Shown one piece after another: positions 1-63,103 of a DNA stretch of 64,000 nucleotides. The DNA lies in contig NC_092673.1 in the NCBI RefSeq assembly GCF_964355755.1, positions 18,907,648-18,971,647 on the forward strand, in the 5' to 3' direction. Both the position numbers and the translations under genes were made by a program. Under the pieces are notes generated by a model. It was given only the letters and a program-made list of their open reading frames with translations. It did not search any database and was not told the DNA's origin. The DNA is from Antedon mediterranea. Lineage: Eukaryota > Animalia > Echinodermata. Every line of letters starts with the position of its first letter. Position 1 is the first letter of the stretch.

Positions 1-3000
1 TATTGATAATCTATACATTGTTACAACATGCTGCTATTAGCTGTGATATCTTCATTCCTCTTACCAGTAGTAGTACTATCAGAATCATTATTGATAATCT
101 ATACATTGTTACAACATGCTGCTATTAGCTGTGATATCTTCATTCCTCTTACCAGTAGTAGTACTATCAGAATCATTATTGATAATCTATACATTGTTAC
201 AACATGCTGCTATTAGCTGTGATATCTTCATTCCTCTTACCAGTAGTAGTACTATCAGAATCATTATTGATAATCTATACATTGTTACAACATGCTGTTA
301 TTAGCTGTGATATCTTCATTCCTCTTACCAGTAGTAGTACTATCAGAATCATTATTGATAATCTATACATTGTTACAACATGCTGCTATTGGCTGTGATA
401 TCTTCATTCCTCTACCAGTAGTAGTACTATCAGAATCATTATTGATAATCTATACATTGTTACAACATGCTGCTATTAGCTGTGATATCTTGATTCCTCT
501 TACCAGTAGTAGTACTATCAGAATCATTATTGATAATCTATACATTGTTACAACATGCTGCTATTAGCTGTGATATCTTCATTCCTCTTACCAGTAGTAG
601 TACTATCAGAATCATTATTGATAATCTATACATTGTTACAACATGCTGCTATTAGCTGTGATATCTTCATTCCTCTTACCAGTAGTAGTACTATCAGAAT
701 CATTATTGATAATCTATACATTGTTACAACATGCTGTTATTAGCTGTGATATCTTCATTCCTCTTACCAGTAGTAGTACTATCAGAATCATTATTGATAA
801 TCTATACATTGTTACAACATGCTGTTATTAGCTGTGATATCTTCATTCCTCTTACCAGTAGTAGTACTATCAGAATCATTATTGATAATCTATACATTGT
901 TACAACATGCTGTTATTAGCTGTGATATCTTGATTCCTCTTACCAGTAGTAGTACTATCAGAATCATTATTGATAATCTATACATTGTTACAACATGCTG
1001 CTATTTAGCTGTGATATCTTCATTCCTCTTACCAGTAGTAGTACTATCAGAATCATTATTGATAATCTATACATTGTTACAACATGCTGCTATTTAGCTG
1101 TGATATCTTCATTCCTCTTACCAGTAGTAGTACTATCAGAATCATTATTGATAATCTATACATTGTTACAACATGCTGCTATTTAGCTGTGATATCTTCA
1201 TTCCTCTTACCAGTAGTAGTACTATCAGAATCATTATTGATAATCTATACATTGTTACAACATGCTGCTATTTAGCTGTGATATCTTCATTCCTCTTACC
1301 AGTAGTAGTACTATCAGAATCATTATTGATAATCTATACATTGTTACAACATGCTGCTATTAGCTGTGATATCTTCATTCCTCTTACCAGTAGTAGTACT
1401 ATCAGAATCATTATTGATAATCTATACATTGTTACAACATGCTGTTATTAGCTGTGATATCTTAATTCCTCTTACCAGTAGTAGTACTATCAGAATCATT
1501 ATTGATAATCTATACATTGTTACAACATGCTGCTATTAGCTGTGATATCTTCATTCCTCCTACCAGTAGTAGTACTATCAGAATCATTATTGATAATCTA
1601 TACATTGTTACAACATGCTGTTATTAGCTGTGATATCTTCATTCCTCTTACCAGTAGTAGTACTATCAGAATCATTATTGATAATCTATACATTGTTACA
1701 ACATGCTGCTATTTAGCTGTGATATCTTCATTCCTCTTACCAGTAGTAGTACTATCAGAATCATTATTGATAATCTATACATTGTTACAACATGCTGCTA
1801 TTTAGCTGTGATATCTTCATTCCTCTTACCAGTAGTAGTACTATCAGAATCATTATTGATAATCTATACATTGTTACAACATGCTGCTATTTAGCTGTGA
1901 TATCTTCATTCCTCTTACCAGTAGTAGTACTATCAGAATCATTATTGATAATCTATACATTGTTACAACATGCTGCTATTAGCTGTGATATCTTCATTCC
2001 TCTTACCAGTAGTAGTACTATCAGAATCATTATTGATAATCTATACATTGTTACAACATGCTGTTATTAGCTGTGATATCTTAATTCCTCTTACCAGTAG
2101 TAGTACTATCAGAATCATTATTGATAATCTATACATTGTTACAACATGCTGCTATTAGCTGTGATATCTTCATTCCTCCTACCAGTAGTAGTACTATCAG
2201 AATCATTATTGATAATCTATACATTGTTACAACATGCTGTTATTAGCTGTGATATCTTCATTCCTCTTACCAGTAGTAGTACTATCAGAATCATTATTGA
2301 TAATCTATACATTGTTACAACATGCTGCTATTAGCTGTGATATCTTCATTCCTCTTACCAGTAGTAGTACTATCAGAATCATTATTGATAATCTATACAT
2401 TGTTACAACATGCTGCTATTAGCTGTGATATCTTCATTCCTCTTACCAGTAGTAGTACTATCAGAATCATTATTGATAATCTATACATTGTTACAACATG
2501 CTGCTATTAGCTGTGGTATCCTCATTCCTCTTATCAGTAGTAGTACTATCAGAATCATTATTGATAATCTATACATTGTTACAACATGCTGCTATTAGCT
2601 GTGATATCTTCATTCCTCTTACCAGTAGTAGTACTATCAGAATCATTATTGATAATCTATACATTGTTACAACATGCTGCTATTAGCTGTGATATCTTCA
2701 TTCCTCTTACTAGTAATAGTACTATCAGAATCATTATTGATAATCTATACATTGTTACAACATGCTGCTATTAGCTGTGATATCTTCATTCCTCTTACCA
2801 GTAATAGTACTATCAGAATCATTATTGATAATCTATACATTGTTACAACATGCTGCTATTAGCTGTGATATCTTCATTCCTCTTACCAGTAATAGTACTA
2901 TCAGAATCATTATTGATAATCTATACATTGTTACAACATGCTGCTATTAGCTGTGATATCTTCATTCCTCCTACCAGTAGTAGTACTATCAGAATCATTA

Positions 3001-8881: not shown

Positions 8882-9219
8882 AAAATCATTATTTATAATC
8901 TCTACTTAATTAAACACAATTTATGTTAGTGGCGGTTTTAATAAAATAAAAAATAAAATGATGAAGGAAATAACAGAATGTCACAAAACACTTCAATAGT
9001 TTATAAAGTACCTTGTTGCTTTTATGATAACAATTGAACATGAATAATGTGCCACTGTCATACAGTAGAACTATAACTCTAACTGTGTGTAGATTCTGGT
9101 GTCTAAATCATAAATTAGCCAAGTCTTATAATTTTCGTAAGATGGATGTTATACGTTGCAAAATGCTTTTTGGCGGTAAGAGTAATATTTTACCAACAAA
9201 CTATTTTTTTTTGTTTTAG

Positions 9220-11686
9220 CTGAGCATACAAAAACAAAAGGAAGAGAAAGAATTCAAGGTAATTGGCTTAAGATATATTAAACATAACATTTTTAATATG
9301 TAAGTTTTTAACATTTTCGTCGTCGTCAAAGCAAACTCTGATCAAAGCGTGGCTTCTCTAACAGTATTCTGAAACCATCGCCTGTCTTCTGTCATAGAGC
9401 CAAACACATCTGTTATAGTCTTCTTCCATTTGCATCTTCCTCTTCTTCTCTTCCCTGGAATATAAGCCTCCAACACTCTCACTCCGCTTAATGTGACCTA
9501 AATAGCACAATTTCTGCTTTTAACATACTGCAGTAACCAATCATTTGATACACCAAGCTCCTTTCTTATGCTATCATTTGTGCGGTGTTGTTGTCAACCT
9601 CCTCCAATGAGGATCCACTTATTTCTATTAATTTAAAAAGTTACTAGTATTAATTAAACTGTGTTACATGAGCTCAATGTTTGCTGACTTTATTATTTTG
9701 GAAACAAGATAGGGTATAGTGTTTGACTATAGATAGATAGATAGATAGATAGATAGTATTCTTAGCAATGGTATACTAAATTAGAGCAAGACAGGTAAAA
9801 GATGTATGACAAGTAATTTATAAAACATGAAATGTAACAAGAATACGATGCAGTATATGTAATACAGTATAACAAAAACAACCTCAATGTTAGTATTTGA
9901 CACACCTACCCTACACCTAACCAATATCACCTTAAAGTTCATTAATTTGAATTTGGTGTGGCTGGTGAAAACGTTTTGGAGAAATTTGCAATGTTGGTTT
10001 GTTGGCTGGCAAAATGGGTTATTTTAAAAAAAATCTTCTAGCCTCAAAATACCGTGACCGTGTTTTTATTGAAAATGAATACATTGTTTAGATATTTTTG
10101 ATGTAAACATACTTGTTTATTAAAGTAATTAATTTCTGACTTATTTAAGTGTGGTTGATTTTTTAAAAAAGTCATAGTAACTTGTATATAAAATATTAAA
10201 CTTTATTGCAGAAAGAAATTTGTTGAAAGACAAGTTCAATGTGTTAAACTATGATCTCGGTGAAGTCTTTAGGAAGAAGAAGAAAAGATACCTTTTGTTG
10301 AGATGTTGTCTCTTTGAGCACATTGATTTACAGGTTCTTGGCAATACAAATTGTATTGCAAAAGATTTATTTGATGAACTTGATGATAAAGAATATGCTA
10401 CACCTACTGATGTCAGTCTTCTGCTAGAGGTTGCAGAATTATCAGAAATTAGTGAGGCTAAAGATGTTGTAAAACAGTATATGGAGGACAACAATGTTCA
10501 AAATACTGATCAACAACAATTGACCCCACATAGGAAAAGGTTGTGCAGGGCATTGACACAGTTTGACCCAAATGAGTTACATAGGGTTAATGCTTTTTAT
10601 AAGTTGGAATTGCCAACCATTTGGGACATATTATTTGAGCTAGAAAGCAAAGACCAATTACAAGATGAATCAGAAAGAAAGATGTTTGCTAAGCTTCTTG
10701 GACCAAAGCCACAGAAAATACTATGTATGTATTTGTATATAATGTTTCAAAAGCCACGTTAGTTCTTACATGCACAGTATTCTTAAATACACAATTAAAA
10801 TACTAATACCTTAACTTGCATCATCACACTCACACACAGCATTGGAATGTAATATCAGGGAAGAGGTATTATTTATCAATTATAACATGCTTGACAATTT
10901 GCTTTGTGTAATATAAAACGTCTTGTAGTATTATATTATATTTATATTTAAAGTTCTTATATGTGCTCCAAATTCTAAGTCTAGCATTTAACAAATTAAC
11001 AACCAAAATTAAGTGCTGTTTTTATATTCATTTGTATTTTAATTTATCTCAATGACAAATATTTTAATATATACTATATTAATAATATAAATCCAAAGGC
11101 AAATTACTGAAAAAATGACAATGCTGTGGGTATCAGTGGCTGGATCTCAATGGAGATACAAAAATAAAAAGCGAAAAGCTAAATCAAAACGATAAAGTAA
11201 ACAGCCAGAAAAGTTAGCAGAGCTTTCGGGCAACACTAGCCCTTCATCAGTGCAAGTGAAGGAATATATTAATAATATATTTACATTTCAGTAATTTAAT
11301 CAAACTCAAATAAAAATATAAAACTAGAAATTAAATTGCTATAACTCTTATCACCATGTGGTTTAAATCTGTTCAAATGGCATTCATACATAATCATCTA
11401 ATAGCAATAAATCTGAATTATGTTGAGAAATATGATACATTATTTGCTTGAGTGTCTGTGCATCTAACCCTGTAAAAATATTTCATAGAAAAAAATATTA
11501 TCATTATCTAGTTACATTATTCTCTTAATGCCCACTGCATAGAACCATGCCTTTAAAAAGAAGTGCAGTAGATGGATTCATGTCTAGGCTGCATGCTTCT
11601 TATTTTGTCACTATAGGATTACCAAACAATCAATAAAAATGTCAATTGCTACTCACCTGTGTTTTTGTTTGTATTTAGATGAATGA
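9220..11686 (+). CDS. 3' end of upstream paralog: basic linker exon 9220-9258, tandem-DED-like exon 10212-10724, terminal exon 11679-11686 (Y-E-stop)
   Basis: All exons have ag/gt boundaries and join in phase 1. The 10212 exon (ORF 10220) aligns along its length with the 62406 exon, e.g. DLFDELDDKEYATPTDVSLLLEV vs DLLNALDDKGVISPTNVSILLEI. The donor TCAAG/GTAATTG matches the one at 62259. Confidence 0.75.
9317..9590 (-). mobile_element. Degenerate 3' fragment of an RTE-clade LINE
   Basis: Minus strand reads, across a frameshift, KQKLCYLGHIKR...LEAYIPGKRRRGRCKW, matching the RTE C-terminal YFGHIxR...GKRxRGRP..W pattern; short (GAC)n tail. Confidence 0.6.
9728..9756. repeat. (ATAG)n microsatellite
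   Basis: About 7 direct ATAG units. Confidence 0.9.
11217..11253 (-). ncRNA. Minimal type-I hammerhead ribozyme motif of the Penelope-associated kind, inside a dispersed ~160-bp repeat (about 11100-11262)
   Basis: Minus strand GCA-CTGATGA-A-GGGC-TAGTGTT-GCCC-GAAA-GCTC-TGC: stem I GCA/TGC, CUGAUGA core, stem II GGGC/GCCC, GAAA, palindromic AGCT in place of stem III. Confidence 0.75.
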
Positions 11687-12757: not shown

Positions 12758-14915
12758 TAAAAAATTCAGCTATATATGTATGTATCTTTTTGAAAGCCCT
12801 GGCAATTATTTTATGCAAAATTCTTTTTATTCAAACAACTTTAAAATTTGACTTCTTGATTCTTTGAATAATTTATTGTTATGATATTTTAGTGGGCAGG
12901 AATTTCCCAAGAAAAAAGTGTTGCAGTCAAGTTTTGAAAACAACAAAAATGGGAATGAAAAAGACACTGAGAAGTACTCATAAGTAAAATATGTTAAAAT
13001 TAAACCTAATCATAGAAGAAGTAATTTTATTAAAATAACAAAAATTACTTAATAGTAATTTTATTAAAATAACGATACTGGAATATTTACAAGCAGCAAT
13101 ACAAGCAATCATTGTGATTTGTTTATTTTAATTATTTTCATTTTACATAAAGCATAGAGATATTATAGTGAACTACTACAGGTAGTAAAAATAATATCTA
13201 TACATAAAGTGATAAAGCTGTGAGTTTTTCTTGTCAGAGAATAAAAAAGATTCTCTGCTATTTTGTATACATTTGTACATTACAGTGATCCAATATTACA
13301 TAAAATGTGAATAAGATGATTTATTTCTGTATAAAGAAAATTGTAACAATAAATAATTTATATTTTGATTCAATATTTTTCATTCATTGTGTTTTGTGTG
13401 TATAGCAATATAAAGGATTATTTGTGTGTGTTACATTGTCTGCTACATTGATTTTGTAACTGTAAAATACAGTCAACTCTCCCAACCCAAAACATTCATG
13501 AAAACTCTTAACAAGACCATTTTAAAGACCAGAATTTCTTTCTTGCTTTTATAAAATGTTTTAAAGAGATCATAGGCCTACTTTTTAGCTTGGATCAAGT
13601 GTTTCTGGCTTCTTAATGGGAGTTGGCTCTATACTTTAATTAATATAATAGGTGTTACGTTACCAGTTTTCTAGAGAATAAAAATGTCTTTTTCTCTTAT
13701 TTTGCAATTAAAAATGTTCAGCCTTGAAGCTGCTTTTTGTTTCATCTACCCATAATACAAATATAAAACAAATCAATGCAAAAATATAAAAAATACACAG
13801 AGGTAAAATACACTTGAATCTTACTGGAGTCTTGTCTTGTAATCAAATTAATTTATGTTTATATGTATATTGGAAAACCAAACAGGACAAGATAGAAGCA
13901 CAAAATCAAATGTAAAATTGGAAATTATTCTTTATAAAGAAAAGATTATTTTGGAAGAGGTGATGTATTATTATTATCATTACTGTTGAATAAGAAATGT
14001 AGGCCTATTACAATGAAATTGTCACATTGGTGAAATGGATAACAATATTATTATATTGCTATACATTTTAGAGCAATATAATATTTGTATCGATTTTACC
14101 ATGGAGAAATAGTCTTATTAACCTGGAGTTTCCCTTTGATTAGGTTTTTGATGTTACTGTGACTGTGGCCAATGCTCTTCGATTTTGACATCGACCTAAA
14201 ATTCTATAGGTCCATGATATAATAGTCAATAGATTGACTATGATGATATTTAGAGATAAACATTGATTGCGCCCTCAATAAAGTTTAATTTCAACAAAAC
14301 AACATCATAACAAACACGTGTGAGTGTGCTGAAAAAAAAGTAAGTATTTTTCATTAATATTACTTTATTTATTAACTTAACAACGATATTATACGAAATT
14401 GTATTCTTTGATCAGCTTGGTTAAACCTATCTAGGCCTAGTAGTAGTAGGTAATTAGGCCTGGGCCTAGGCTAGCCGGCGCTAGTTCCGTTTCGCACCTG
14501 TCGTTTATTTCGACTCAAAATTGTCGTGAGTACCACACCTTAGAATTAAGTCTCAAAAATACTTTTACGAAGGAGATCACACAAAAAGTAAAAAATGAAT
14601 CCTTTAAATTGATGAATTTACAGACGTGTTTCTCGCACATCGGTTCGTGAATTTCGCATACTCCATCATGTTCAATGTTGTTGTTTCTATGGAGCGCCAA
14701 AAGAGCAGTCATAATAGAGGGCTAAAAACTCAGTAAATTGTGTATATTTAATGCATTTATTGGTGAAAATTACGTTCAATTTTATCATATTTTGTCAATG
14801 TCAATGCAACAAAAATATTACTGTTAATACTGTACATGGTTTTTGCAGGAGCTTTTAGGAATGAAAATCGACAAATTCATCATCATATTACATGTACTGT
14901 AGGGGTATACCTTAA

Positions 14916-15541: not shown

Positions 15542-15826
15542 TTAATCTAAATAATATGCCTCTTAGTTAGTCTTAGTCTTACTCTTAGGCCTAGGGTTGG
15601 TTGCTATTTGAAAACAGCAAATTATTGAAAGAATTTCATTTAGCTTCGATTTTGTATAGATGACAAATTTCGTTTTTGTAAAAGCACAAGTTAACGGAGT
15701 ACTTACTCGAACGTTTCGATCTCTATCAGAGATCCTTCTCAACTGACTGCGGAGTGTTAATGCAGCTTGGTCATTCTTGACGTCATCTGTTGATGACGTT
15801 GTACGCCTCCGGTTGTAGGTTGGAGG

Positions 15827-17833: not shown

Positions 17834-17840
17834 CACTCCG

Positions 17841-17885
17841 CAGTCAGTTGAGAAGGATCTCTGATAGAGATCGAAACGTTCGAGT
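17841..17885 (+). ncRNA. Hammerhead-like motif in the Penelope pseudo-LTR; mirror copy at about 15705-15749 on the minus strand
   Basis: TTGAGAA (U3/A8 covariant core), G, perfect hairpin GATCTCT-GAT-AGAGATC, GAAACGTT; stem I pairing is weak. Confidence 0.5.
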
Positions 17886-45400: not shown

Positions 45401-48400
45401 TTCCTTGCAGTTGTTAAAAATAATTTACAATATTTGTCCAAAGAGGTTACTTGCTAAAATAGTTAATATTGGTTATACATTGGATTTGATATTCTTCATG
45501 AATTTCTAGGTCGTCAAAAAAAAGGTGATATTTAAGTTCAGGTGAGCTTGACGTGAATAAGTCCCATATTTTATGCAAATCATTGTGGTATAGATCTTCT
45601 TTAAGTTGTTTAAATATTGAGTTTCTAATATTTATTTATCTAGTACAATTGAATACAAAATGATAAATTGTTTCTTTTTCACCACAATTACATAACAAAC
45701 ATGATCCTAAATTTTGTGGTGACCAAGCTTCCTTTCTTCCTTCGAGTGGTAATGAGTTAGAACGAGCTTTGAATTTTAGACTTGATGCATGTATACTAAG
45801 CATATTTTATCAATAAATGGAGTAAAGAATGTTGTAATTTTGCCAGGCCTTTCTACGACTCTTTTTCACCCACAAAAAAAAACCAGATTAATATAACTAA
45901 TTGTAACTTTAAATAGTTTATTAATAGGCAAAGGATTCATAAACAAGTTTATAATATGCATATGTTAGGTAAAAATGCACAATCGGCATCTTCTATCAAC
46001 TGGCAATGAGTCGCCAAGATGCGTCCTTTCTCCTGTATTGTTCAGCATATATACAAATGAGTTTAAAATTAAATTTGATGACTGCTGTTTAATTAAGTAT
46101 GCCGATGACAGTGTTATAACTGGATCTATTAGGATAATAATTAATTTAAAAAAAACTATAGACAGTCAATAAATGACTTTGCCACATCGTGTGGTAATAA
46201 CATCCTAACCTTAAATACAGATAAAACTAAAGAGATCATTTTTTACTTTAGACGCTCCAAAAGAACACTTCCAATTGCCATAACTACCAATGAACAAAAT
46301 ATTGAAATGGTCGAGGAATTTAAGTATCTTGGTGTTGAGCTTAATTAAAACCTTAACTGGGAAGCCAACTGCTTACGCGTCGTGACGTTTGCTCCCAAAC
46401 CCTTCCCATCATGCGTCGCCCACGGTATTTGCGATAAACCTTATTACAAAAAGAGCAAGCCAGAGAATTTTTTTCCTCCGAAACTTAAAAGCTTCAATAT
46501 CAGATGTGAAATTCTTAACCCTTTTTTGATAGCGTTATTAGAAGTGTTCTTTTATTTGGCTCAATTGTCTGGTTCTCGAATCTAACTCAAAGGGTAAAAA
46601 ACAAACTAAAATGGTAGAGTGGGCCAGTAAAATAATCGGCATTAGCCTTGAACCTCTTATGTCTCCAAATGAAAGGGACATCCTAAAAACTGTCAATAAA
46701 ATTTGTCAAGATCCCGATCACCCTGTAAATAAATTCTTTAAGCTTAGCCAAACTGGTAGACGGATCACTCTGAATCACAACACTAAACTAAATAGCAAGT
46801 TTGATCTCTGTAATTTGTTGTTTTTTTTGTTTTTTTATATATTTGTATATCGTTTGTATATTGTATGTATATCAAATGTAAATCAACCAACCAAATTTTA
46901 TTTGTACCTTGTTGTAAAAATGACAATAAATACTATTGTATCGTATCGTATAGTAGAATGGGGAACCTAATGTTACAAAAATGAATTATATGAGATTTTA
47001 ATGCTCAAATTGAGTGCGGAATTGATTTGGAATCCTTAGAACTATTAGACTTCATTGCAATTGGTGGCAATTTTTCCAGACCCTAATTTGCCTGCCATCG
47101 TGGAGCCTATTTTGGACCAATATGAACATACTTTTGCCAAATCATACAATATCATGACAAATAGATTTGACAATTTGTATTAATAGCACTGATGGCGGCC
47201 ATTGGATTCCAAGATTGATGCCATTAAAATTGATTTGAATCCTTATGACTATCAAAGCAATCTAACCACATACTACATTACCTTAAATAGTACTAGTAGA
47301 ATGAATTCCAATTTAGGACAATTTGTTCAACCGCATTATGAAATGAGTTGATAGTTCAGGGTATAGTCACGTATCTATATATTTTTTTCTCTACAGGTAA
47401 TCCTTCAAAACAGTATACAAAAATGGTCAAGAATAAATTGAGAGAAAGGAAAACTGTAAACGTAAGTCACTATAGTGTAATTGAAACATAAAATGAATAA
47501 AATAGTATCCACATGGATGTTCTACTAATACAAACCTGTCATTTAAGCTTCTTTTGTAAATGAACCAATGAGACATATGACTATTGAGCAGCAGTTTTAA
47601 TTATAAAAAAAAACATTTTTTTTTTTTCAATTCTTTTATAATTTGGTTTTGAAAGTTTTCTTCTGTTAAACGTAGATTATTTAAGTTTTGATAAACATTT
47701 AAATCTTTTATATCCGTTTACTCTTTTTTTATTTCAAGTGTCATGATGATAAACCACTTACATATGATTCCAATTACAAAAATGATGATTACAGAAATGA
47801 TGACGACAACAATGATGATTACAGAAATAATGGTGTGTAACTCCCTTTCTAATTTTGTTGATATCGTTGTCAATAATGAATAAATAAGTCCTAAAAGTAT
47901 GAGTCATATTCATATATCATCGCTATTTGAAATAATCAATTAGATTGTGTTTAAAAAAAATTTATTTTCCAATTTAAAGTAACTAAACTATTACTATGTA
48001 ATATAGTTTTTATGTGATCATATTTATATTTAACAATTATGTTGACAGTCAATTTTTTGTCGAAGTGAATAACTATTATGTGACATTAAAATGGCATATT
48101 CAACAAAAAATGTGTTCTAGAGTTGACCAGCCGATTCTGTAAGACCTTGAAAAATAGTCATTAGGGACTTTACGGAACAGGACGGGAAGCCACAGAATGC
48201 TAATGAATAATTTATAACTTTTTGTGGACAATAAAGTTGCCATTTTCCCGTTTACGGAGAATGACTAGAAATAATGTACATATAACCTTAAATATACAGT
48301 TCAAATTACACTTAAACATGGAATTTTTAAAACTCTAAATAATATTTGAATTTAATTTAATTGTTTAACGTTAAAAGCAATACATTTTGTGCGGTGTTTG

Positions 48401-51400
48401 AATGCGAGACCTCTAGCTAGGAAGGCTATGCTGTATCACCAGAGCCAAGCGATTCAGAAGGGCCATGCGCTGCGAGGCAGGGGAGGGAGAGAGATACTGC
48501 CGGTTGTCGTCTTTGCACAAGGGTATGTAACTAATAAAACAGCTGTGTCGCCTGTATATGATTTTACATTCTAGCGAACACAGGATGTCCGTTGTCTTCC
48601 CCTAACTGTCCTGTTTTGGCTGGGGGTGGCAGATGCCAAAATAAGCATGCTTGAATTTTACTTGTGTTTATGATAACCAACAAAATTTGTTTCCACTACA
48701 GGTACTGCTACAGCAGCTGAAGCTATTCCAATTGATATAGATAAACAGTTAGATAAAGATGTAATTCAGGATATTGTGCAAAATAAGGAGACGACTTTGG
48801 AAGAAACATTCAACATCTGGGACCATGGGGGACAATTGATATACCATGGTATACATCGTGTAAGGCTGATTCAAACCTATGGAATTATGCTTTCGTATCG
48901 TACGTGGCGTACAACTTCATGTCTGAACCAGGAAAAGATTAGTGAAAGCCACCTCTTTATGACACTGACCTTTCGTTCGTTCTGAAGGTACAAGATTAGT
49001 GTACAGATGCTTATGATACGATCAATGATTCTGACCTCCAACCAATCAAATTTACTCTTGCATGCCAGATGTTGGCTAAATCTGTTTCACTTCAGTTTGT
49101 AACAAAAGCGTTAATCAATTCAAAACACTTTGCTGTTTCTAACTACTGTGAAGTAGCTTTGTGTCTAGAGGTATGAATGCCAGGCTAGTGATGTGGAGGT
49201 CGTGGATTCGAGTCCCACCCAAGAATTACTTAAATACAAATTATGACAGAGTGGGGAAAATTATCTAACCAATTGCTAAGTATAATATGACCTTGCTTGC
49301 GATACGAAAGCATTTCTCCATGTGTCTGAACCTACCCTTAATTTCAAAATATGTAGTAGAACAGAACATTGATATTTTATTGAATAAGATCTGGATAAGA
49401 TCTTTACTTCAAAAACATTAAACTCCACATCAGCCAGTTAAAAGGAAATGTTACTAACATAACTGTATGGCTATGGTACAGTATGGTATGCCTTTCTTGC
49501 CTATTCAGTAATCACAAATTTCTTTCCATGGTAACTGCTTATATAATTGTTAATATTAAACATTTTCCATGCCTATATTCCAACAAAACAAATCAAGTAT
49601 TTTCAGTAACTCTTAGTTCTTGATTTTTGTTTTCTATCATCACTGATTGTAGCCACAATATTATATGAATTTGTTATAGAGAATTGCTCTGATAAAAGGA
49701 TTAACAGAAATAGATTTTAGATAGTTTTTATTTATATTAGGGTCCACCTACAAATTCAAATAATATTAACGAATATTAATCAGCCAATATTTAAATAAAA
49801 AAATAATTTTTGCAGATCTTCATGACATCACGATCACTTTACATTGTAGTGTTTGATCTCAGTAAACCCTTGGATGATCTTGCTACTTTCATTAATTCTA
49901 CTGGAGTAAGTATTTCTAGAGCATGGCGGCAGTAAGGTATTGTGATTGAACAAGTCTTCTAATTTATAAAAACAAAAACAGTTTGACTATTATAAAAGAT
50001 TTTATTTCATACCTTCCAGATAAGATGTAGTAATGAACATTTTTTTTAAACTAACCATTTCAAGTTTAACTTTAAGATGTTTTGAAGTGTTCTTATAATT
50101 TTTTTTTCAGAGAACATGTCAACATCATTGGACCAATCTCCAGTTCATATTATCTTACATCCTGTCAGTTTATTCTCATAGTCGTATTGTGGAAGAGGAT
50201 GAGGAGAATGAAGTTGACAAACCAACTATCCTTATTGTGGGTACACATAAGGGGAAGCTTGGCTGGACTGAAGAACAGCAAAATGATGAGGTTAATACTT
50301 CTTTTGTTTCTGTATTATTATAAATAGCCACAACCAAAGATACATTGCAGTTGTAACTGTTTTTAAATATTACTTCAAATAAATTACAAAATTGACACAT
50401 TCTTATTATGAAATAGGCGTAAACTATTTTAAAATTATTTACAAACAGGCAGAAAAGGTGTTTAAAATTATTCGAGATGTTCTTAAAACAAAACAATATG
50501 GAAATCATGTCTACCACAAATATTTTGCCATTGAAAACAGTCAACCAACCACAGATAAGAGCTTTGGTTATCTCAAACAAGTTATTGATAAACTTATGAA
50601 AGCATTAGAACAGCCTTTTCCTTTAAAGTGGATGCGTTTTCGATGTGATCTACATGATCTAAGAGGAAAAAAACAGCCCTCCTTTTCTTTGTGTCCTTTA
50701 AAAGAGGTAAATGTTATTTGTTTTGTTTGGTTCTTTTTTTCAGAAAAGAACATTTTTGGAAATATTAAGTCGCAAGTATCTATCAAGTATCTAAAAAAAA
50801 ATTAACGTTTCTAAATATAAGTACCCTTTAATTAAAAAATGTCCATAGCCTACTGTAGCCAATTAGATTACAATATCCAACATCATATTTTCATCTCAGA
50901 TATTTGCTGCCATTGTTTTATTTATAAATTGTGTGTTTGAAAATACTGAGGTAATTAGCCATTGAAATTCAATATTTCAAACTATGTTTTCATGTAATAC
51001 CCACATGTTACAAAAATAAATATGATTTCATATTTTGTTATTTAATTCTGAATAATACTAATTATTATTTCTTTTAGATCAAAATTCTGACAAGTAAGAA
51101 TGGTATTGTTGACGAAAAAAACAAATCAGTCCTGCTTAACTTGTATGATCTTGGTGAAATTGTTTACATGCCTGACAACAAATTATTAAGGGATAAAGTC
51201 ATGCTAGATCCGTTGAGGCTGGTTGAAATTGTCACCAAATTTGTAACTGTAGTTTCCCCAAAATATCCCGTAAGTAGACTCATGTAATGTCTTGCATTGT
51301 AAAAACATGTTACCGTAGTATAATTACTCCTGTTCTGTGTAATTTATTATTCCTTAGCAACAAATTTGCCTTTAGTAATATTTGATAGAGATGCTTAACA

Positions 51401-54400
51401 TTTTCTATAGATAAAATAAAAAGTATGCTGTAAGGCATCATTTGCAATTTACTGTAATTTTTTTACAAGTTTTAATTATTTCACTTTTAATATTCTGCTT
51501 TCAATCTATTATAATTGAAGCACTATAAAAGTGAATAGCACAGCAGCAAACTAACTTGGAGTAATTTCACAGTTTAACCCTTTCACTGCGTGTATTACCG
51601 GGTATAAACATGTCTTTGAACTCCATATAAGCATCATTACCGGGTACACTATATTTTTGATAAACTTAAATATATTTGCAATGTTTTAAAACTATTTTCC
51701 TGCACTACATGCAACCTCTATATTTTTTTATATCGTCGTATCGTACCATTTTCTTACTCCAAACCGTAGACCAACCTTTTACCCACCACAAAAATATTTA
51801 CAAAATTATCTCATTTAGTATGTTTTTGCAATTTATTAAAAATCACCTGTCTCTCAATGTTATGCACAGTGAAAGGGTTAAACCACGATACTGTATTATA
51901 CCAACATATGGTTCATCTATATTCTATTCTGTATCTATTTCCGTCATCCTCACAACTGTTATAAACACAAAATATGATGCATAATTGATAGTTGGTGTTT
52001 TTTTTAGTCCGCTAAATATAGAAGATCTTTTGATAAACTTGACAAAGGCATACTGGAAGAAGACTTGTTGCGAAAATTATGGAAAGATAGTAAAGTTGAC
52101 AACGGAAAGAATTTTGAGTTCCTTGTAGCACTGATGATTCAATTAGGTTTCATTTGTGAGAGGAAGACAACCAGCAGACACGATGTGGCAAGTACATCTT
52201 GTTTCTTTAAGCTTTCATTTTATACATGTAAGATTTGGGAGAAAAAGTATTATTTTAATAGTTTGGATTTTTAATGTTCAAAGTTTAAATAAACTTTCTA
52301 ATGAAAATGTCTACATGACAGAGTATCTTTAGTTTGCTTTAAATAATTTAAATGGCATTGTTACAAATTAACAATTTCAGAAATCAGTTGGAAAACAATC
52401 CTTTTTTGTGCCACTGCGACTTGCTATCAAGACAAGACAAGTGGGACAATTACCTGATGATTCACAATCTATCAGCAGGCCTATCTATTACGACTTTGAG
52501 GGATATCTGCCAGACGTGTTGTTTCCGTATTTAATTATTGAATTCCTTAACAAATTTCAAAAGGAAGGAGTTGACCCAATACTCGCATGTAATTATGCAG
52601 AACTTTACCTCAACGAAAATCATCATGTGATTTTGTCTCTTGACAAATTTATTACTAAGAAGGATGAGCGAAAGTTCTTGTTAAAGGTAATAAATAATCT
52701 CTATAATGAATGTTCAATATATATCACTAAATTATGAAAGTTAAATATTGTTGCTTAGTCTTTCCCAGAATTTACTTTAAATGCATCTAAATTTTGATAA
52801 CAAAGCATCACATCTATTTTTACTTTCTAGATGGCTATTAAAAGAACAGATTCTTTTGACGAAACGAGTAAAGAGGAACCTTCAGCTGAAGCATGTAAAT
52901 TGGTATGTTATGTTACCAGTTATATTATATATCTGTTTGGACGTACTTTATCAAAATACACATAGAACAATTGAGGAGAAATTTACACATGTTTCTTTAA
53001 ACTATGCTTTTAGATCAGTAAATATGTTAAAAATCTGTTGCAAATTCTCTAACTGTGTCTCTCCAGATAGGTATAGGTAGGTTTCCTTAAAAGCTTCACA
53101 ATGTATAGTGATTGGTACCAAGGATATCAAATTCTACTAGGAAAAATGTAAAATCATTTGAATTTCATTCACTGGATATAACTTATAATTTATCAAAAGT
53201 TACATCTATGTTTTCTTTTCTTTTTTTAATTGAATTGAAAAAAATATAATCCCAATAAAGTTTTCAGATTTACACCATAAATCTGAAAACATTGCCTAAC
53301 TTTGTGAGCTACTGCATCATTGATGCTTTCATATTTGCTGGTGTGTGTCTTAAATTGTTATCAATCAACATTAAATTTATATCTTTAGGTTTTGTCAACA
53401 GTTGAGAAGTCATTCGAGCATTCTAAAGATGGTGGTAGAAGGGGGATTCCATTCAAGAGATGCATTCCTTGTCAGTGTAGTGATCAATTAGACAAGAAGC
53501 ATTTTCAAATTCTTGAAGATTTCACATGTGGAAAGTTGATGTGCACCGAAACTGGCAAGTCTGTTACGATGGATGTCACATGTTACAAGCGGCTGTTTGG
53601 ATGTAAGAGTCATTAAATTTATTTATTTTTATTAAGTACATTTTCATTAATACGCTACTTCTTCATGAAGGACTCTCACTCATCCCTACAGTACAGGAAA
53701 CTGAAAAAAGGGCTATTTCTGTTCTATAAACAACTTGTGATCTATTTGTGCAAAAAGTGACATGTTTAAATAATTATAGAATAGAAAAAGAGGATACTGT
53801 ACCTTATTTGAAAATAGACATATTTGATAATACTCTTCCAGTAGTAGTACAACATAATCATTATTGATAATCTATACATTGTTACAACATGCTGCTATTA
53901 GCTGTGATATCTTCATCCCTCTTACCAGTAGTAGTACTATCAGAATCATTATTGATAATCTATACATTGTTACAACATGCTCCTATTAGCTGTGATATCT
54001 TCATTCCTCTTACCAGTAGTAGTACTATCAGAATCATTATTGATAATCTATACATTGTTACAACATGCTGCTATTAGCTGTGATATCTTCATTCCTCTTA
54101 CCAGTAATAGTACTATCAGAATCATTATTGATAATCTATACATTGTTACAACATGCTGCTATTAGCTGTGATATCTTTATTCCTCTTAGTAGTAGTAGTA
54201 CTATCAGAATCATTATGGATAATCTATACATTGTTACAACATGCTGCTATTAGCTGTGATATCTTCATTCCTCTTACCAGTAGTAGTACTATCAGAATCA
54301 TTATTGATAATCTATACATTGTTACAACATGCTGCTATTAGCTGTGATATCTTCATTCCTCTTACCAGTAATAGTACTATCAGAATCATTATTGATAATC

Positions 54401-57400
54401 TGTACATTGTTACAACATGCTGCTATTAGCTGTGATATCTTCATTCCTCTTACCAGTAGTAGTACTATCAGAATGATTATTGATAATCTATACATTGTTA
54501 TAACATGCTGCTATTAGCTGTGATATCTTCATTCCTCTTACCAGTAGTACTGTAGTAGTATCAGAATCATTCTTGATAATCTATACATTGTTACAACATG
54601 CTGCTATTAGCTGTGATATCTTCATTCCTCTTACCAGTAGTAGTACTATCAGAATCATTATTGATAATCTATACATTGTTACAACATGCTGCTATTAGCT
54701 GTGATATCTTCATTCCTCTTACCAGTAGTACTGTAGTAGTATCAGAATCATTATTGATAATCTATACATTGTTACAACATGCTGCTATTAGCTGTGATAT
54801 CTTCATTCCTCTTACCAGTAGTAGTACTATCAGAATCATTATTGATAATCTATACATTGTTACAACATGCTGTTATTAGCTGTGATATCTTCATTCCTCT
54901 TACCAGTAGTAGTACTATCAGAATCATTATTGATAATCTATACATTGTTACAACATGCTGCTATTAGCTGTGATATCTTCATTCCTCTTACCAGTAGTAG
55001 TAGTACTATCAGAATCATTATTGATAATCTATACATTGTTACAACATGCTGCTATTAGCTGTGATACCTTCATTCCTCTTACCAGTAGTAGTACTATCAG
55101 AATCATTATTGATAATCTATACATTGTTACAACATGCTGCTATTAGCTGTGATATCTTCATTCCTCTTACCAGTAGTAGTACTATCATAATCATTATTGA
55201 TAATCTATACATTGTTACAACATGCTGCTATTAGCTGTGATACCTTCATTCCTCTTACCAGTAGTAGTACTATCAGAATCATTATTGATAATCTATACAT
55301 TGTTACAACATGCTGCTATTAGCTGTGATATCTTCATTCCTCTTACCAGTAGTAGTACTATCAGAATCATTATTGATAATCTATACATTGTTACAACATG
55401 CTGCTATTAGCTGTGATATCTTCATTCCTCTTACCAGTAGTAGTAGGCTACTATCAGAATCATTATTGATAATCTATACATTGTTACAACATGCTGCTAT
55501 TAGCTGTGATATCTTCATTCCTCTTACCAGTAGTAGTACTATCAGAATCATTATTGATAATCTATACATTGTTACAACATGTTGCTATTAGCTGTGATAT
55601 CTTCATTCCTCTTACCAGTAGTAGTACTATCAGAATCATTATTGATAATCTATACATTGTTACAACATGCTGCTATTGGCTGTGATATCTTCATTCCTCA
55701 TACCAGTAGTAGTACTATCAGAATCATTATTGATAATCTATACATTGTTACAACATGTTGCTATTAGCTGTGATATCTTCATTCCTCTTACCAGTAGTAG
55801 TACTATCAGAATCATTATTGATAATCTATACATTGTTACAACATGCTGCTATTAGCTGTGATATCTTCATTCCTCTTACCAGTAGTAGTACTATCAGAAT
55901 CATTATTGATAATCTATACATTGTTACAACATGCTGTTATTAGCTGTGATATCTTCATTCCTCTTACCAGTAGTAGTACTATCAGAATCATTATTGATAA
56001 TCTATACATTGTTACAACATGCTGCTATTAGCTGTGATATCTTCATTCCTCTTACCAGTAGTAGTACTATCATAATCATTATTGATAATCTATACATTGT
56101 TACAACATGCTGCTATTAGCTGTGATACCTTCATTCCTCTTACCAGTAGTAGTACTATCAGAATCATTATTGATAATCTATACATTGTTACAACATGCTG
56201 CTATTAGCTGTGATATCTTCATTCCTCTTACCAGTAGTAGTACTATCAGAATCATTATTGATAATCTATACATTGTTACAACATGCTGCTATTAGCTGTG
56301 ATATCTTCATTCCTCTTACCAGTAGTAGTAGGCTACTATCAGAATCATTATTGATAATCTATACATTGTTACAACATGCTGCTATTAGCTGTGATATCTT
56401 CATTCCTCTTACCAGTAGTAGTACTATCAGAATCATTATTGATAATCTATACATTGTTACAACATGTTGCTATTAGCTGTGATATCTTCATTCCTCTTAC
56501 CAGTAGTAGTACTATCAGAATCATTATTGATAATCTATACATTGTTACAACATGCTGCTATTGGCTGTGATATCTTCATTCCTCATACCAGTAGTAGTAC
56601 TATCAGAATCATTATTGATAATCTATACATTGTTACAACATGTTGCTATTAGCTGTGATATCTTCATTCCTCTTACCAGTAGTAGTACTATCAGAATCAT
56701 TATTGATAATCTATACATTGTTACAACATGCTGCTATTAGCTGTGATATCTTCATTCCTCTTACCAGTAGTAGTACTATCAGAATCATTATTGATAATCT
56801 ATACATTGTTACAAAATGCTGTTATTAGCTGTGATATCTTCATTCCTCTTACCAGTAGTAGTACTATCAGAATCATTATTGATAATCTATACATTGTTAC
56901 AACATGCTGCTATTAGCTGTGATATCTTCATTCCTCTTACCAGTAGTAGTTCTATCAGAATCATTATTGATAATCTATACATTGTTACAACATGCTGCTA
57001 TTAGCTGTGATATCTTCATTCCTCTTACCAGTAGTAGTACTATCAGAATCATTATTGATAATCTATACATTGTTACAACATGCTGTTATTAGCTGTGATA
57101 TCTTCATTCCTCTTACCAGTAGTAGTACTATCAGAATCATTATTGATAATCTATACATTGTTACAACATGCTGCTATTAGCTGTGATATCTTCATTCCTC
57201 TTACCAGTAGTAGTTCTATCAGAATCATTATTGATAATCTATACATTGTTACAACATGCTGCTATTAGCTGTGATATCTTCATTCCTCTTACCAGTAGTA
57301 GTACTATCAGAATCATTATTGATAATCTATACATTGTTACAACATGCTGCTATTAGCTGTGATATCTTCATTCCTCTTACCAGTAGTACTGTAGTAGTAT

Positions 57401-60400
57401 CAGAATCATTATTGATAATCTATACATTGTTTACAACATGCTGCTATTAGCTGTGTTATCTTCATTCCTCTTGTAGTACTATCAGAATCATTATTGATAA
57501 TCTATACATTGTTACAACATGTTGCTATTAGCTGTGATATCTTTATTCCTCTTACCAGTAGTAATACTATCATAATCATAATAATCTATACATTGTTTAC
57601 AACATGCTGCTATTAGCTGTGATATCTTCATTCTTCTTACCAGTAGTAGTACTATCAGAATCATTATTGATAATCTATACATTGTTACAACATGCTGCTA
57701 TTAGCTGTGATATCTTCATTCCTCTTACCAGTAGTAGTACTATTAGAATCATTATTGATAATCTATACATTGTTACAACATGCTGCTATTAGCTGTGATA
57801 TCTTCATTCCTCTTACCAGTAGTAGTACTATCAGAATCATTATTGATAATCTATACATTGTTACAACATGCTGCTATTAGCTGTGATATATTCATTCCTC
57901 TTAATACCAGTAGTAGTACTATCAGAATCATTATTGATACTCTATACATTGTTACAACATGCTGCTATTAGCTGTGATATCTTCATTCCTCTTACCAGTA
58001 GTAGTACAACATAATCATTATTGATAATCTATACATTGTTACAACATGCTGCTATTAGCTGTGATATCTTCATTCCTCTTACCAGTAGTAGTACTATCAG
58101 AATCATTATTGATAATCTATACATTGTTACAACATGCTGCTATTAGCTGTGATATCTTCATTCTTCTTACCAGTAGTAGTACTATCAGAATCATTATTGA
58201 TAATCTATACATTGTTACAACATGCTGCTATTAGCTGTGTTATCTTCATTCCTCTTACTAGTAGTAGTACTATCAGAATCATTATTGATAATCTATACAT
58301 TGTTACAACATGTTGCTATTAGCTGTGATATCTTCATTCCTCTTACCAGTAGTAGTACTATCAGAATCATTCTTGATAATCTATACATTGTTACAACATG
58401 CTGCTATTAGCTGTGATATCTTCATTCCTCTTACCAGTAGTAGTACTATTAGAATCATTATTGATAATCTATACATTGTTACAACATGCTGCTATTAGCT
58501 GTGATATCTTCATTCCTTTTACCAGTAGTAGTACTATCAGAATCATTATTGATAATCTATACATTGTTACAACATGCTGCTATTAGCTGTGATATCTTCA
58601 TTCCTCTTACCAGTAGTAGTACTATCAGAATCATTATTGATAATCTATACATTGTTACAACATGCTGCTATTAGCTGTGATATCTTCATTCCTCTTACCA
58701 GTAGTAGTACTATCAGAATCATTATTGATAATCTATACATTGTTACAACATGCTGCTATTAGCTGTGATATCTTCATTCCTCTTACCAGTAGTAGTACTA
58801 TCAGAATCATTATTGATAATCTATACATTGTTACAACATGCTGCTATTAGCTGTGATATCTTCATTCCTCTTACCAGTAGTAGTACTATCAGAATCATTA
58901 TTGATAATCTATACATTGTTACAACATGCTGCTATTAGCTGTGATATCTTCATTCCTCTTACCAGTTATAGTAGTAGTATCAGAATCATAATAATCTATA
59001 CATTGTTCACAACATGCTGCTATTAGCTGTGATATCTTCATTCCTCTTACCAGTAGTAGTACTATCAGAATCATTATTGATAATCTATACATTGTTACAA
59101 CATGCTGCTATTAGCTGTGATATCTTCATTCCTCTTACCAGTAGTAGTACTATCAGAATCATTATTGATAATCTATACATTGTTACAACATGCTGCTATT
59201 AGCTGTGATATCTTCATTCTTCTTACCAGTAGTAGTACTATCAGAATCATTATTGATAATCTATACATTGTTACAACATGCTGCTATTAGCTGTGTTATC
59301 TTCATTCCTCTTACCAGTAGTAGTACTATTAGAATCATTATTGATAATCTATACATTGTTACAACATGCTGCTATTAGCTGTGATATCTTCATTCCTCTT
59401 ACCAGTAGTAGTACTATCAGAATCATTATTGATAATCTATACATTGTTACAACATGCTGCTATTAGCTGTGATATCTTCATTCCTCTTACCAGTAGTAGT
59501 ACTATCAGAATCATTATTGATAATCTATACATTGTTACAACATGCTGCTATTAGCTGTGATATCTTCATTCCTCTTACCAGTTATAGTAGTAGTATCAGA
59601 ATCATAATAATCTATACATTGTTACAACATGCTGCTATTAGCTGTGATATCTTCATTCCTCTTACCAGTAGTAGTACTATCAGAATCATTATTGATAATC
59701 TATACATTGTTACAACATGCTGCTATTAGCTGTGATATCTTCATTCTTCTTACCAGTAGTAGTACTATCAGAATCATTATTGATAATCTATACATTGTTA
59801 CAACATGCTGCTATTAGCTGTGTTATCTTCATTCCTCTTACTAGTAGTAGTACTATCAGAATCATTATTGATAATCTATACATTGTTACAACATGTTGCT
59901 ATTAGGTGTGATATCTTCATTCCTCTTACCAGTAGTAGTACTATCAGAATAATTCTTGATAATCTATACATTGTTACAACATGCTGCTATTAGCTGTGAT
60001 ATCTTCATTCCTCTTACCAGTAGTAGTACTATCAGAATCATTATTGATAATCTATACATTGTTACAACATGCTGCTATTAGCTGTGATATCTTCATTCTT
60101 CTTACCAGTAGTAGTACTATCAGAATCATTATTGATAATCTATACATTGTTACAACATGCTGCTATTAGCTGTGATATCTTCATTCCTCTTACCAGTAGT
60201 AGTACTATCAGAATGATTATTGATAATCTATACATTGTTACAACATGCTGCTATTAGCTGTGATATCTTCATTCCTCTTACCAGTAGTAGTACTATCAAA
60301 ATCATTATTGATAATCTATACATTGTTACAACATGTTGCTATTAGGTGTGATATCTTCATTCCTCTTACCAGTAGTAGTACTATCAGAATCATTCTTGAT

Positions 60401-63103
60401 AATCTATACATTGTTACAACATGCTGCTATTAGCTGTGATATCTTCATTCCTCTTACCAGTAGTAGTACTATCAGAATCATTATTGATAATCTATACATT
60501 GTTACAACATGCTGCTATTAGCTGTGATATCTTCATTCTTCTTACCAGTAGTAGTACTATCAGAATCATTATTGATAATCTATACATTGTTACAACATGC
60601 TGCTATTAGCTGTGATATCTTCATTCCTCTTACCAGTAGTAGTACTATCAGAATGATTATTGATAATCTATACATTGTTACAACATGCTGCTATTAGCTG
60701 TGATATCTTCATTCCTCTTACCAGTAGTAGTACTATCAGAATCATTATTGATAATCTATACATTGTTACAACATGCTGCTATTAGCTGTGATATCTTCAT
60801 TCCTCTTACCAGTAGTAGTACTATCATAATCATTATTGATAATCTATACATTGTTACAACATGCTGTTATTAGCTGTGATATCTTCATTCCTCTTACCAG
60901 TAGTAGTACTATCAGAATCATTATTGATAATCTATACATTGTTACAACATGCTGCTATTAGCTGTGATATCTTTATTCCTCTTACCAGTAGTAGTACTAT
61001 CAGAATCATTATTGATAATCTATACATTGTTACAACATGCTGCTATTAGCTGTGATATCTTCATTCCTCTTACCAGTAGTAGTACTATCGGAATCATTAT
61101 TGATAATCTATACATTGTTATAACATGCTGCTATTAGCTGTGATATCTTCATTCCTCTTACCAGTAGTAGTACTATCAGAATCATTATTGATAATCTATA
61201 CATTGTTACAACATGCTGCTATTAGCTGTGATATCTTCATTCCTCTTACCAGTAGTAGTACTATCAATCATTATTGATAATCTATACATTGTTACAACAT
61301 GCTGCTATTAGCTGTGATATCTTCATTCCTCTTACCAGTAGTAGTACTATCAGAATCATTATTGATAATATATATATTGTTATAACATGTTGCTATTAGC
61401 TGTGATATCTTCATTCCTCCTACCAATTTATAATTTATTTAATAATGTCAAGATAGTTAAAATTCAAACAAATGTTAATGTTGGAGGTTCAATGTTTAAA
61501 TAGGCCATATATTTATAAAAACATATTCTTATATTTTAATAGGTAATATATAATTTTATCTTTCAAAAACTTGTTTGTGTATTAATAGTTTTAAGTATTA
61601 AAATATTTTTTTTAATGAAAATACTTACGTGGATAAGGTTTGGATTATCACTACAATGCAAGAACGTAGACACAACATAAGTAATTTGACCAATGACAAG
61701 TGAAGGATTGAATAGGTCTCATATTAGCTGTGTATTGCAACCTATATCCTTGTATTGCATCCATGTGAGATGCTCAAGTGATTATAGTTAAACAATGTAT
61801 GCAGTGGAACTGTCAATATTCCATGTGAGACTATAGTTAAACAATGTATGCAGTGGAACTGTCAATATTCCATGTGAGACTATAGTTAAACAATGTATGC
61901 AGTGGAACTGTCAATATTCCACCACAGACTGTACAACGGCATTGCATTATGTACTATAAACATTTTCCAATAGTAAATGTACATCTTATTTTGATCATTT
62001 TTAGGCAGTAGTGATGAGGACCAAAATGAAGGCACATCATCCAGTCACCAATCTCAGCCAAGAGAAGGTAAGTTACTAGTAGATAAAGATTATGATATGA
62101 AAAAGTCTCTCAACCTATGAAAACACATGGTGTATTGCTAACTTGACGGCCTAACAAGGGTGTCCACTTACAGGATGTTCAACGGTACAATTAATATTTT
62201 TTTTTTATTTGCAGATGAATTTGGCCCATCGGAAAGAAAAAAAAGAAAAAAAGATCAAGGTAATTGATTGAAATATATATCGAATAATAAGTAGAGTGAA
62301 TATAGAAAATAAAAACAATTTAAATATTTCAAACTAGTTTTGATCAAAATTGGGGGAAAGAATAATGATCATCGTCAAACTAATTTTCTGTCATTTTATT
62401 TGCAGGAAACACAATGGCAGATTCTGAATCTTTGAACAGATTTCGAGACCTTAAATCTGATCTTAATAGATCCTTTGATGATGAAAGATACTATATGATA
62501 AGATTCCTCTTATTTGATGACTTAAGGTTATGTTATGTTACAAATCCAGATTTTATTGGACATGACTTACTCAATGCACTTGACGACAAAGGTGTAATCT
62601 CACCAACTAATGTTAGCATTCTTTTGGAGATTACAAAGCTATCGGAAATCAAGAAAGCTGAAGATATTGTAATACAATATATGAAAGACAACAAAGTTCA
62701 GGACAGGTCTGATACAAAATTGTCATCTTACAGAAAGCGACTGTTTACAGCTATGTTAGATATTCACTCAGATGCATTCAAAAGAATTATTTCAAACTAT
62801 GGATTGAGAAAACATAACTTCTCCAATGTTTGGGATGCAGTTCTCCATCTGGAGATTGAGGCAGAATTAGCAGATGATCCAGACAAAATAAAAAGTTTTG
62901 CTCGTCATCTAGGCCAAAAAGCAAGAGACATACTACTTGGTAATGATATGTTAATAACTTCTTATTTAAGAGTTTATTGACTCGTTCATTCTTTAACCTG
63001 TTTACATTATAATTTAACCAAAATTAAATTTGGTTTAATTTTAATCATTAAAATTAGTAATGTCATTAACTGGTTATTTATAGGCAATAGTGAGAAGAAA
63101 TAA
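41541..63103 (+). CDS. Multi-exon ROCO-family gene: TKL kinase - Roc GTPase - COR - linker - tandem DED-like, about 1,200 aa. Exons: 41541-42428, 43559-43731, 44853-44938, 47397-47461, 47739-47832, 48702-48859, 49816-49905, 50111-50290, 50449-50706, 51078-51269, 52008-52187, 52381-52686, 52831-52902, 53389-53602, 62005-62067, 62215-62259, 62406-62939, 63084-63103
   Basis: Exons joined by hand at AG/GT sites (one possibly GC) with matching phases give a continuous frame with kinase, Roc G1-G5, COR and DED-like motifs in order; the last exon is uncertain. Confidence 0.8.
43559..50706 (+). CDS. Roc GTPase domain exons and start of COR
   Basis: AYNEALTEG..KVIGQEGVGKT (G1), TDGIE (G2), IWDHGGQLIYHGIHRIFMT (G3), LYIVVFDLS, ILIVGTHKG (G4), FAIENS (G5), then PLKWMRF. 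Confidence 0.88.
45167..45860 (-). mobile_element. 3' fragment of a non-LTR retrotransposon (intronic)
   Basis: Minus strand LKFKARSNSLPL...CLLCNCGEKETIYHFVFNC (CCHC finger typical of LINE C-termini), then AATAAA and a (TTA)n tail. Confidence 0.7.
45975..46945 (+). mobile_element. Degenerate LINE RT fragment (intronic)
   Basis: SPRCVLSPVLFSIYTN, IKYADD, LTLNTDKTKEIIF, FKYLGV; AATAAA and a (TATCG)n tail near 46926-46950. Confidence 0.75.
49150..49225 (+). mobile_element. tRNA-like SINE head (intronic)
   Basis: TGTGTCTAGAGG (A-box-like) and GATTCGAGTCCC (B-box-like); no complete cloverleaf. Confidence 0.4.
51078..53602 (+). CDS. COR domain exons
   Basis: LLNLYDLGEIVYMP...LRDKVMLDPLRLVE, KGILEEDLLRKLW, LMIQLGFI, FFVPLRL, LPDVLFPYLI, C-terminal CIPCQC...H...C. 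Confidence 0.8.
51578..51877. mobile_element. piggyBac-like MITE (intronic)
   Basis: TTAA|CCCTTTCACTG ... CAGTGAAAGGG|TTAA. Confidence 0.85.
53830..61425. repeat. 88-bp tandem satellite array, about 86 copies, inside the intron between the last COR exon and the linker/DED exons
   Basis: Same monomer and orientation as 1-8881; lies between the donor after 53602 and the acceptor before 62005. Confidence 0.99.
61782..61921. repeat. 49-bp tandem repeat, about 3 copies
   Basis: TATAGTTAAACAATGTATGCAGTGGAACTGTCAATATTCCATGTGAGAC repeated. Confidence 0.9.
62406..62939 (+). CDS. Exon encoding a tandem death-effector-domain-like pair
   Basis: FRDLKSDL...MIRFLL...DLLNALDDKGVISPTNVSILLEI...IVIQY fits DED1; LSSYRKRLF...WDAVLHLE resembles the caspase-8/cFLIP DED2 start (ISxYRxxL); phase 1-1 exon. 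Confidence 0.72.

Follow-up and report, generated by a model that had tools for sequence, protein, structure and literature searches.

Why should one and the same satellite lie upstream of the effector exons of two genes when those exons have themselves diverged strongly, and does the satellite help to join such exons to new partners? The question is raised by a 64,000-nt stretch of DNA from the crinoid Antedon mediterranea (hereafter, the window), in which two long arrays of an 88-bp unit, A and B, each lie 5′ of an exon for tandem death-effector domains (DEDs). An earlier note on this DNA had read the arrays as a recombination hinge that swaps DED modules between kinase-Roc-COR cores. The monomers of both arrays, the related proteins of the same species, and public sequence contigs were compared with that proposal in mind.

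Two arrays and the genes around them

The arrays and the exons of the two genes, A and B, are as follows.

1–8882, + strand: satellite array A, 88-bp unit, 100.8 copies by Tandem Repeats Finder, at least 100 monomers, cut by the window start
8883–8912, + strand: degenerate part of a monomer bordering array A on its 3′ side, 76% identical to the preceding unit
9073–9175, + strand: 3′ remnant of a membrane-hairpin exon, score 82 against P0001 (maximum 44 in 1000 shuffles)
9220–9258, + strand: gene A linker exon, phase 1-1, homologous to L2 of gene B with a score above 500/500 shuffles
10212–10724, + strand: gene A tandem-DED-like exon, 66% identical to the tail of P0017
41541–42428, + strand: gene B kinase exon, PF07714 E 7e-45
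43559–50706, + strand: gene B Roc exons, eight predicted
51078–53602, + strand: gene B COR exons, five predicted, 90–92% identical to six A. mediterranea proteins
53833–61425, + strand: satellite array B, period 88, 86.1 copies by Tandem Repeats Finder, inside the 8402-nt phase-1 intron after COR
62005–62067, + strand: gene B linker exon L1, phase 1-1
62215–62259, + strand: gene B linker exon L2, phase 1-1, homologous to the gene A linker
62406–62939, + strand: gene B tandem DED exon, 534 nt, predicted caspase-8-like fold
63084–63103, + strand: gene B last coding exon with the stop codon, a shifted paralog of L1; P0050 has the same ending

Gene B is open throughout its 18 predicted exons, which run from the kinase through Roc, COR, two linkers, and the tandem DED to the stop exon, and its product would comprise about 1205–1216 aa, the range reflecting two alternative paths at one intron. 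Compared singly with Pfam, its exons scored below the cut-offs for both Roc (E 0.079) and COR-A (E 7e-5). The COR exons show 90–91% identity to proteins for which Roc and COR-A domains are precomputed, in the Roc-then-COR order expected of Roco proteins, and the exon at 43559 encodes a P-loop-like motif, GQEGVGKT. All four introns 3′ of COR are in phase 1. Judged by its sequence, gene B reads as an intact Roco gene that carries array B in the phase-1 intron after COR. Its 534-nt exon stayed below the cut-off of the Pfam DED profile; the predicted model (pLDDT 94.9) found its best structural matches in the caspase-8 tandem DED (E 6e-4, TM 0.68–0.72), and we assign the exon a predicted caspase-8/cFLIP-type double DED fold. 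For these Roco genes, we infer an immune or cell-death role from the domains alone. A 21-bp in-frame tandem duplication lies at the end of the kinase exon (42363–42411), and at 52188–52387 the donor at the relatives' position is apparently missing, with a GC donor or a shifted GT/AG pair preserving the frame. The terminal exon (63084–63141) is a paralog of L1 (0/500 shuffles reach the score) that now forms the end of the protein.

Gene A is represented by its 3′ part. Its tandem-DED-like exon, assigned by homology to that of gene B, is 37% identical to the latter (63/169), in good agreement with the one-third that the earlier note had estimated by eye, and is preceded by one linker exon as against two in gene B. 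The best match to the gene A tail is P0017, a Roc-COR-linker-DED protein, and the closest tails (P0017 and P0023) come after COR; in P0001, moreover, the membrane-hairpin exon comes immediately after COR. Array A is therefore likely to lie in the first intron after COR, with the upstream part of gene A outside the window, a placement reached by comparison because the window begins inside the array. The claim that the satellite fills the equivalent intron of two paralogs thus stands for gene B and is probable for gene A, whereas the claim that each array lies directly 5′ of a linker and a DED exon needs correction in gene A, where the hairpin remnant intervenes. The end of this remnant is like the last COR exon, its hydrophobic 5′ part is gone, its donor at 9176 lies only 44 nt before the next acceptor, and public contigs show loose ends at 9092, within it; gene A may be damaged. 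Derivation of the 88-bp monomer from a membrane-hairpin exon was considered and rejected, as 105–305 of 500 shuffles equaled the score for each of seven hairpins.

Mobile elements and further repeats occupy other parts of the window. At 14466–18326, an open reading frame with reverse transcriptase (RT) and GIY-YIG regions (15797–17833), which we take to be Penelope-like, is accompanied by a 176-bp inverted repeat and nested between inverted arms of approximately 280 bp that are 80% alike. A truncated element, presumably Gypsy-type, with gag-, protease-, and RT-like frames and a zinc knuckle (22030–26450) abuts a second RT-like fragment. Outside gene B, a frameshifted PHD-finger fragment (63852–64000, E 5e-8) is likely of retroelement origin. 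The region is rich in local satellites, with further tandem arrays at 28434–30102 (89 bp), 33730–34653 (130 bp), 36318–36579 (37 bp), and 61783–61921 (49 bp).

Monomers, flanks, and array-less introns

Tandem Repeats Finder and monomer cutting bore out the statement that the arrays share one consensus and one orientation: both are on the same strand, and their modal 88-mer is identical, accounting for 26/100 monomers of A and 23/85 of B. The monomers are homogenized, with approximately 1.2 changes per monomer, in the manner of concerted evolution, and the mean pairwise difference is scarcely greater between the arrays (2.37) than within A (2.24) or B (2.26). The two arrays nevertheless differ in composition. 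Among variants occurring at least three times, 8 of the 13 in array A and 11 of the 15 in array B are private. Repeated blocks extend to 14 monomers in A and 9 in B as against a maximum of 2 monomers for blocks common to both, and the longest exact stretch is 297 nt from A to B compared with 1233 nt within A and 862 nt within B. Fst between the arrays was 0.049, a value reached by 0/2000 permutations of monomers that are not themselves independent, and the variants of array A recur along its whole length to the window edge. Past the edge of array A and array B, no other 88-bp monomers were found in the 64-kb window.

Since private variants prevail and no multi-monomer block is common to both, the sequences point to two distinct arrays, derived from a single recent source and expanded independently since then. 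The earlier view that gene conversion or unequal crossover keeps the arrays alike is therefore retained as to a young common source and abandoned as to continuing exchange, of which the longest common run of 2 monomers and the mostly private variants give no recent trace between A and B. The faint similarity once noted between the 3′ flanks did not hold up, because 184/500 shuffles reached the alignment score (92/500 for the first 120 nt) and the motif cited from the flank of B is a piece of the local 49-bp tandem repeat, present in three copies. These comparisons support a common ancestor of the arrays far younger than that of their flanks. Within the window, the array pair is the sole long homology 3′ of COR, extending over 7–9 kb at approximately 97% identity. 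Each unit holds one AGCT and one TAGTACTA palindrome. Transposon hallmarks (terminal inverted repeats, target duplication, and common ends) were absent from both flanks of array B and from the A/B 3′ flanks, which are the ends that the window contains, the 5′ end of array A lying outside it; the flanks of array B match over 9–11 nt only.

Ten public runs contain part of the window, at most 0.34 of its words, in short contigs throughout; one of them, X10, was left out as cross-species evidence owing to its low depth and 10 contigs. The COR intron preceding the array occurs in several copies among these contigs. One contig of run X4 links satellite sequence to the COR intron (depth 180, as compared with 82 in the intron before it). 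That COR-intron flank, present in run X6 at depth 596 versus 154, leaves the window at 53852 and goes on like the L1 acceptor region at approximately 61952; because the flank runs straight to L1-type acceptor sequence, the array is absent in that form. An origin of this junction as a clean microhomology deletion was dropped, as it joins 53852 to sequence that is only like that at 61952. X6 has this array-less intron and yet the highest monomer depth: 509,663, as compared with 44,325 in X4 and 25,805 in X1, where unique contigs have depths of 154, 82, and 9, respectively. These values suggest hundreds to thousands of monomers as an order of magnitude only, since depth is not copy number, and the excess over unique contigs makes arrays A and B likely to be a minority of all monomers, with the remainder at unplaced loci.

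The junctions of the satellite, by comparison, are few. With the monomer plus the array A flank as the stretch compared, 7, 3, 15, and 15 contigs overlapped it only in part, and the listing showed 22 of the 45 loose ends; given at most 15 such contigs per run, we regard junctions as few, in records that are filtered and in which identical junctions collapse. Three foreign satellite flanks taken from contigs did not occur in the 64-kb window. One X1 contig is identical to the array A flank at 8952–9300, although X1 is possibly not independent of the window. Among the matches listed, none bridged array A to its flank, a gap that proves nothing in such contigs. A run presumed to be of RNA left the linker exon uncovered, which says nothing for or against expression.

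Core and tail relationships among Roco proteins

The closest proteins to genes A and B come from A. mediterranea and are mostly encoded on one 36-Mb contig. Core and tail identities were obtained from 23 sequences with a complete COR end, which are predicted RefSeq models without genomic context and may skip linker exons or stem from mis-joins. Seven X-type cores, including that of gene B, are 90–99% identical, yet are followed by five different first segments after COR; their tails are 24–80% identical in 20/21 pairs and 99% identical in one. P0013 and P0015, for example, are 99% identical in the core and 27% in the tail. The reverse pattern was seen in six pairs, with tails at 78–85% and cores at 69–70%.

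Core and tail trees were built from gene B and the 13/34 proteins having both parts, with P0015, proteins with other tails, and Anneissia rows excluded. AU tests, on groups chosen after inspection of the data, rejected core clades on the tail tree (p 0.026, 0.033, and 0.039) and one tail group on the core tree (p 9e-8). A breakpoint scan covered 495 nonindependent triplets of 11 sequences, with linkers omitted and any column allowed as a breakpoint. The strongest switches fall at the COR/tail boundary, e.g., 131:14 and then 8:47 (p 8e-25). Strong reversals number 103, of which 30 straddle this boundary, 59 break within one or the other of the two exons next to it, and 14 break farther inside the core. 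Identities, AU tests, and triplet breakpoints thus agree that core and tail are incongruent among the A. mediterranea proteins, as the earlier note had anticipated for trees built on either side of the array, and they support the swapping of death-effector tails between Roc-COR cores at the COR/tail boundary.

The position of individual switches is less uniform. From the first residue past its X-type COR end, P0013 has the linkers of P0005, so that this break falls in the array's intron. P0013 and P0015, by contrast, have the first linker in common and differ after it, and their switch lies outside the array intron. Nearest relatives compared exon by exon also change inside Roc. In gene B, the nearest relative of the Roc exons changes from exon to exon across satellite-free introns, and the core appears to be a mosaic; its first Roc exons (43559–49905) are 67–80% identical to X-type genes, with one 97% identical to P0018, and later exons are at 89–96%. 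The idea of the array as the hinge for DED modules is accordingly kept for swaps at the boundary and weakened by the switches that fall after the first linker or inside the core and by the array-less intron of X6.

The same tandem-DED module recurs among P0035, P0036, P0067, and P0080, where it is present in four copies in a single protein and elsewhere follows kinases or a region other than COR; by sequence it appears to be widely shuffled. The kinase exon of gene B has a single match at E 1e-60 or better, P0010 (76%), a very large GTPase-like protein that is not Roco; because its best match lies there, the kinase module may also travel between GTPase classes.

A candidate hinge, its alternatives, and known systems

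The reading that we prefer, with a probability of about 0.5, is that a "core plus array" unit moves with the array at its 3′ end, the array thereby being one hinge, though not the sole one, that joins cores to new tails. Germline ectopic recombination between Roco cores would start in their common core homology, and the recombining core would carry along the 5′ part of the post-COR intron plus the array. The exchange would end in another array, by unequal crossover or conversion, or alternatively by template switching at the array's end, which would explain why the 3′ flanks are unrelated and why the membrane-hairpin exon that follows array A is cut. Because phase-1 introns are symmetric, the recombinant products would remain in frame. 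In favor of such a hinge, the difference between the arrays is about that within them while their 3′ flanks fail to align, the strongest core/tail switches fall at the boundary where array B lies, and the X4 contig joins the COR intron to the satellite. Against it stand the private variants, the switch after the first linker, the 14/103 breaks in the core, and the array-less form in X6. In that capacity, the satellite may ease the tail swaps. A bolder version makes the array a dedicated switch element under selection within a cluster of invertebrate immune genes, where it would occupy the post-COR intron of many paralogs and act in the germline (possibly also somatically); this seems doubtful. 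If it were true, kinase-Roc-COR cores would trade their death-effector tails at a rate far beyond what sequence divergence would permit, and the array would parallel antibody switch regions or the 70-bp repeats of trypanosomes.

The main alternative, which we consider possible although we lean away from it, is that tails swap in the linker zone through symmetric phase-1 introns and short homologies, while the array merely hitchhikes with duplicated or converted cores and expands locally with no effect on the swap rate. The P0013/P0015 switch after the first linker, the mosaicism of cores at satellite-free sites, the array-less form in X6 at depth 596 versus 154, and the private variants of both arrays would all be expected if this were so; it sits less well with the P0013/P0005 break, which falls in the array's own intron, and with the 7–9 kb at approximately 97%, apart from which the window has no long homology 3′ of COR. 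It is distinctly improbable that a satellite family spread independently of Roco genes and reached this neighborhood twice, whether through circular DNA or by spreading locally. Such spread is known (PMC7403614, in the portion consulted), monomers exceed unique contigs in depth by a factor of hundreds to thousands, and the three tested flanks have no match in the window, but junction contigs are few per run, the two arrays have one orientation and are each located shortly 5′ of linker and DED exons homologous to those of the other gene, and the window holds no other monomer.

That a mis-join through the satellite brought array A and an unrelated tail together, or made a second copy of array B, is highly unlikely: the contigs listed include no bridge from array A to its flank, but the variant sets of A and B differ, those of A recur up to the window edge, an X1 contig matches 8952–9300 without a difference, and P0017 has the same COR-linker-tail order. 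Least probable of all, and to our minds nearly negligible, is a somatic, class-switch-like deletion between arrays by which immune cells would acquire a different tail. What brings it to mind are long repeats of one orientation that precede effector exons and hold one AGCT and one TAGTACTA palindrome in each unit; a downstream constant-region unit, however, lacks the full core that gene B owns, the variant blocks are compatible with unequal exchange in the germline, and these data show no somatic products. The preferred reading, of an array that travels with the core and serves as one hinge among others, can be set beside several known systems, described here from portions of the papers cited.

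Brown-algal LRR-ROCO genes likewise form expanded Roco families with exon shuffling, but it is their N-terminal LRR exons that are shuffled, whereas whole C-terminal effector tails change here (PMC3341825 and PMC11378527, in part). The word "satellite" occurs 0 times in the main texts of these two papers; their supplements, like that of the SpTrf paper, could hold details of intron repeats. In the LRR genes of Tetrahymena with 90-bp exons, intron repeats have been proposed to mediate ectopic recombination of phase-compatible exons; there, a retrotransposon supplies the repeat and LRR exons are shuffled one by one, as against an 88-bp array and effector tails here (PMC6564038, in part). The euchromatic 1.688 and Rsp-like satellites of Drosophila resemble the present arrays in expanding locally by unequal exchange and spreading between loci, and in spreading Rsp-like arrays one end junction is shared and the other is variable; they are not tied to a domain boundary of a gene family in the portion of PMC7403614 consulted, where "intron" occurs 0 times. 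The portion of PMC7919458 consulted held nothing relevant, and among titles and the beginnings of abstracts no paper was found that deals with an array of this kind or with the swapping of Roco tails in crinoids.

In other systems, a repeat lies 5′ of the cassettes or exons concerned. The trypanosome 70-bp repeats form an array 5′ of divergent cassettes that gives the homology for swapping, in a tested, mitotic process that moves a silent archive into one expression site (PMC4858185, in part), whereas the present arrays are intronic and their exchange would probably be germline. Immunoglobulin switch regions, too, are repetitive regions of 1–10 kb located 5′ of effector exons, but they serve programmed somatic deletion, and their downstream units lack any 5′ gene part (PMC2442634, in part). 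In the window, a long repeat lies 5′ of both tails (2/2), with an array-less form in X6, and because gene B has a complete kinase-Roc-COR, the array departs from switch regions in one of their defining features.

A further parallel is that of the KIR and sea urchin SpTrf (Sp185/333) clusters, where immune genes are likewise clustered and common repeats, including minisatellites in the first intron of KIR genes, have been suggested as the driving force of domain shuffling and of changes in copy number, as well as of conversion and crossing over (PMC5103432, in part). Those repeats are short or flank the genes; here, the 88-bp array is multi-kb in length and marks a single domain boundary in a gene for an intracellular GTPase. 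The present comparisons document Roco cores with mix-and-match death-effector tails in crinoids, and the locus offers a sharp swap boundary, locus-specific variants able to record crossovers, and coexisting array-bearing and array-less forms as natural controls. Repeat-driven domain shuffling in immune clusters has often been proposed, by mechanisms that the consulted part of PMC5103432 itself calls untested, and this array locus makes the idea testable.
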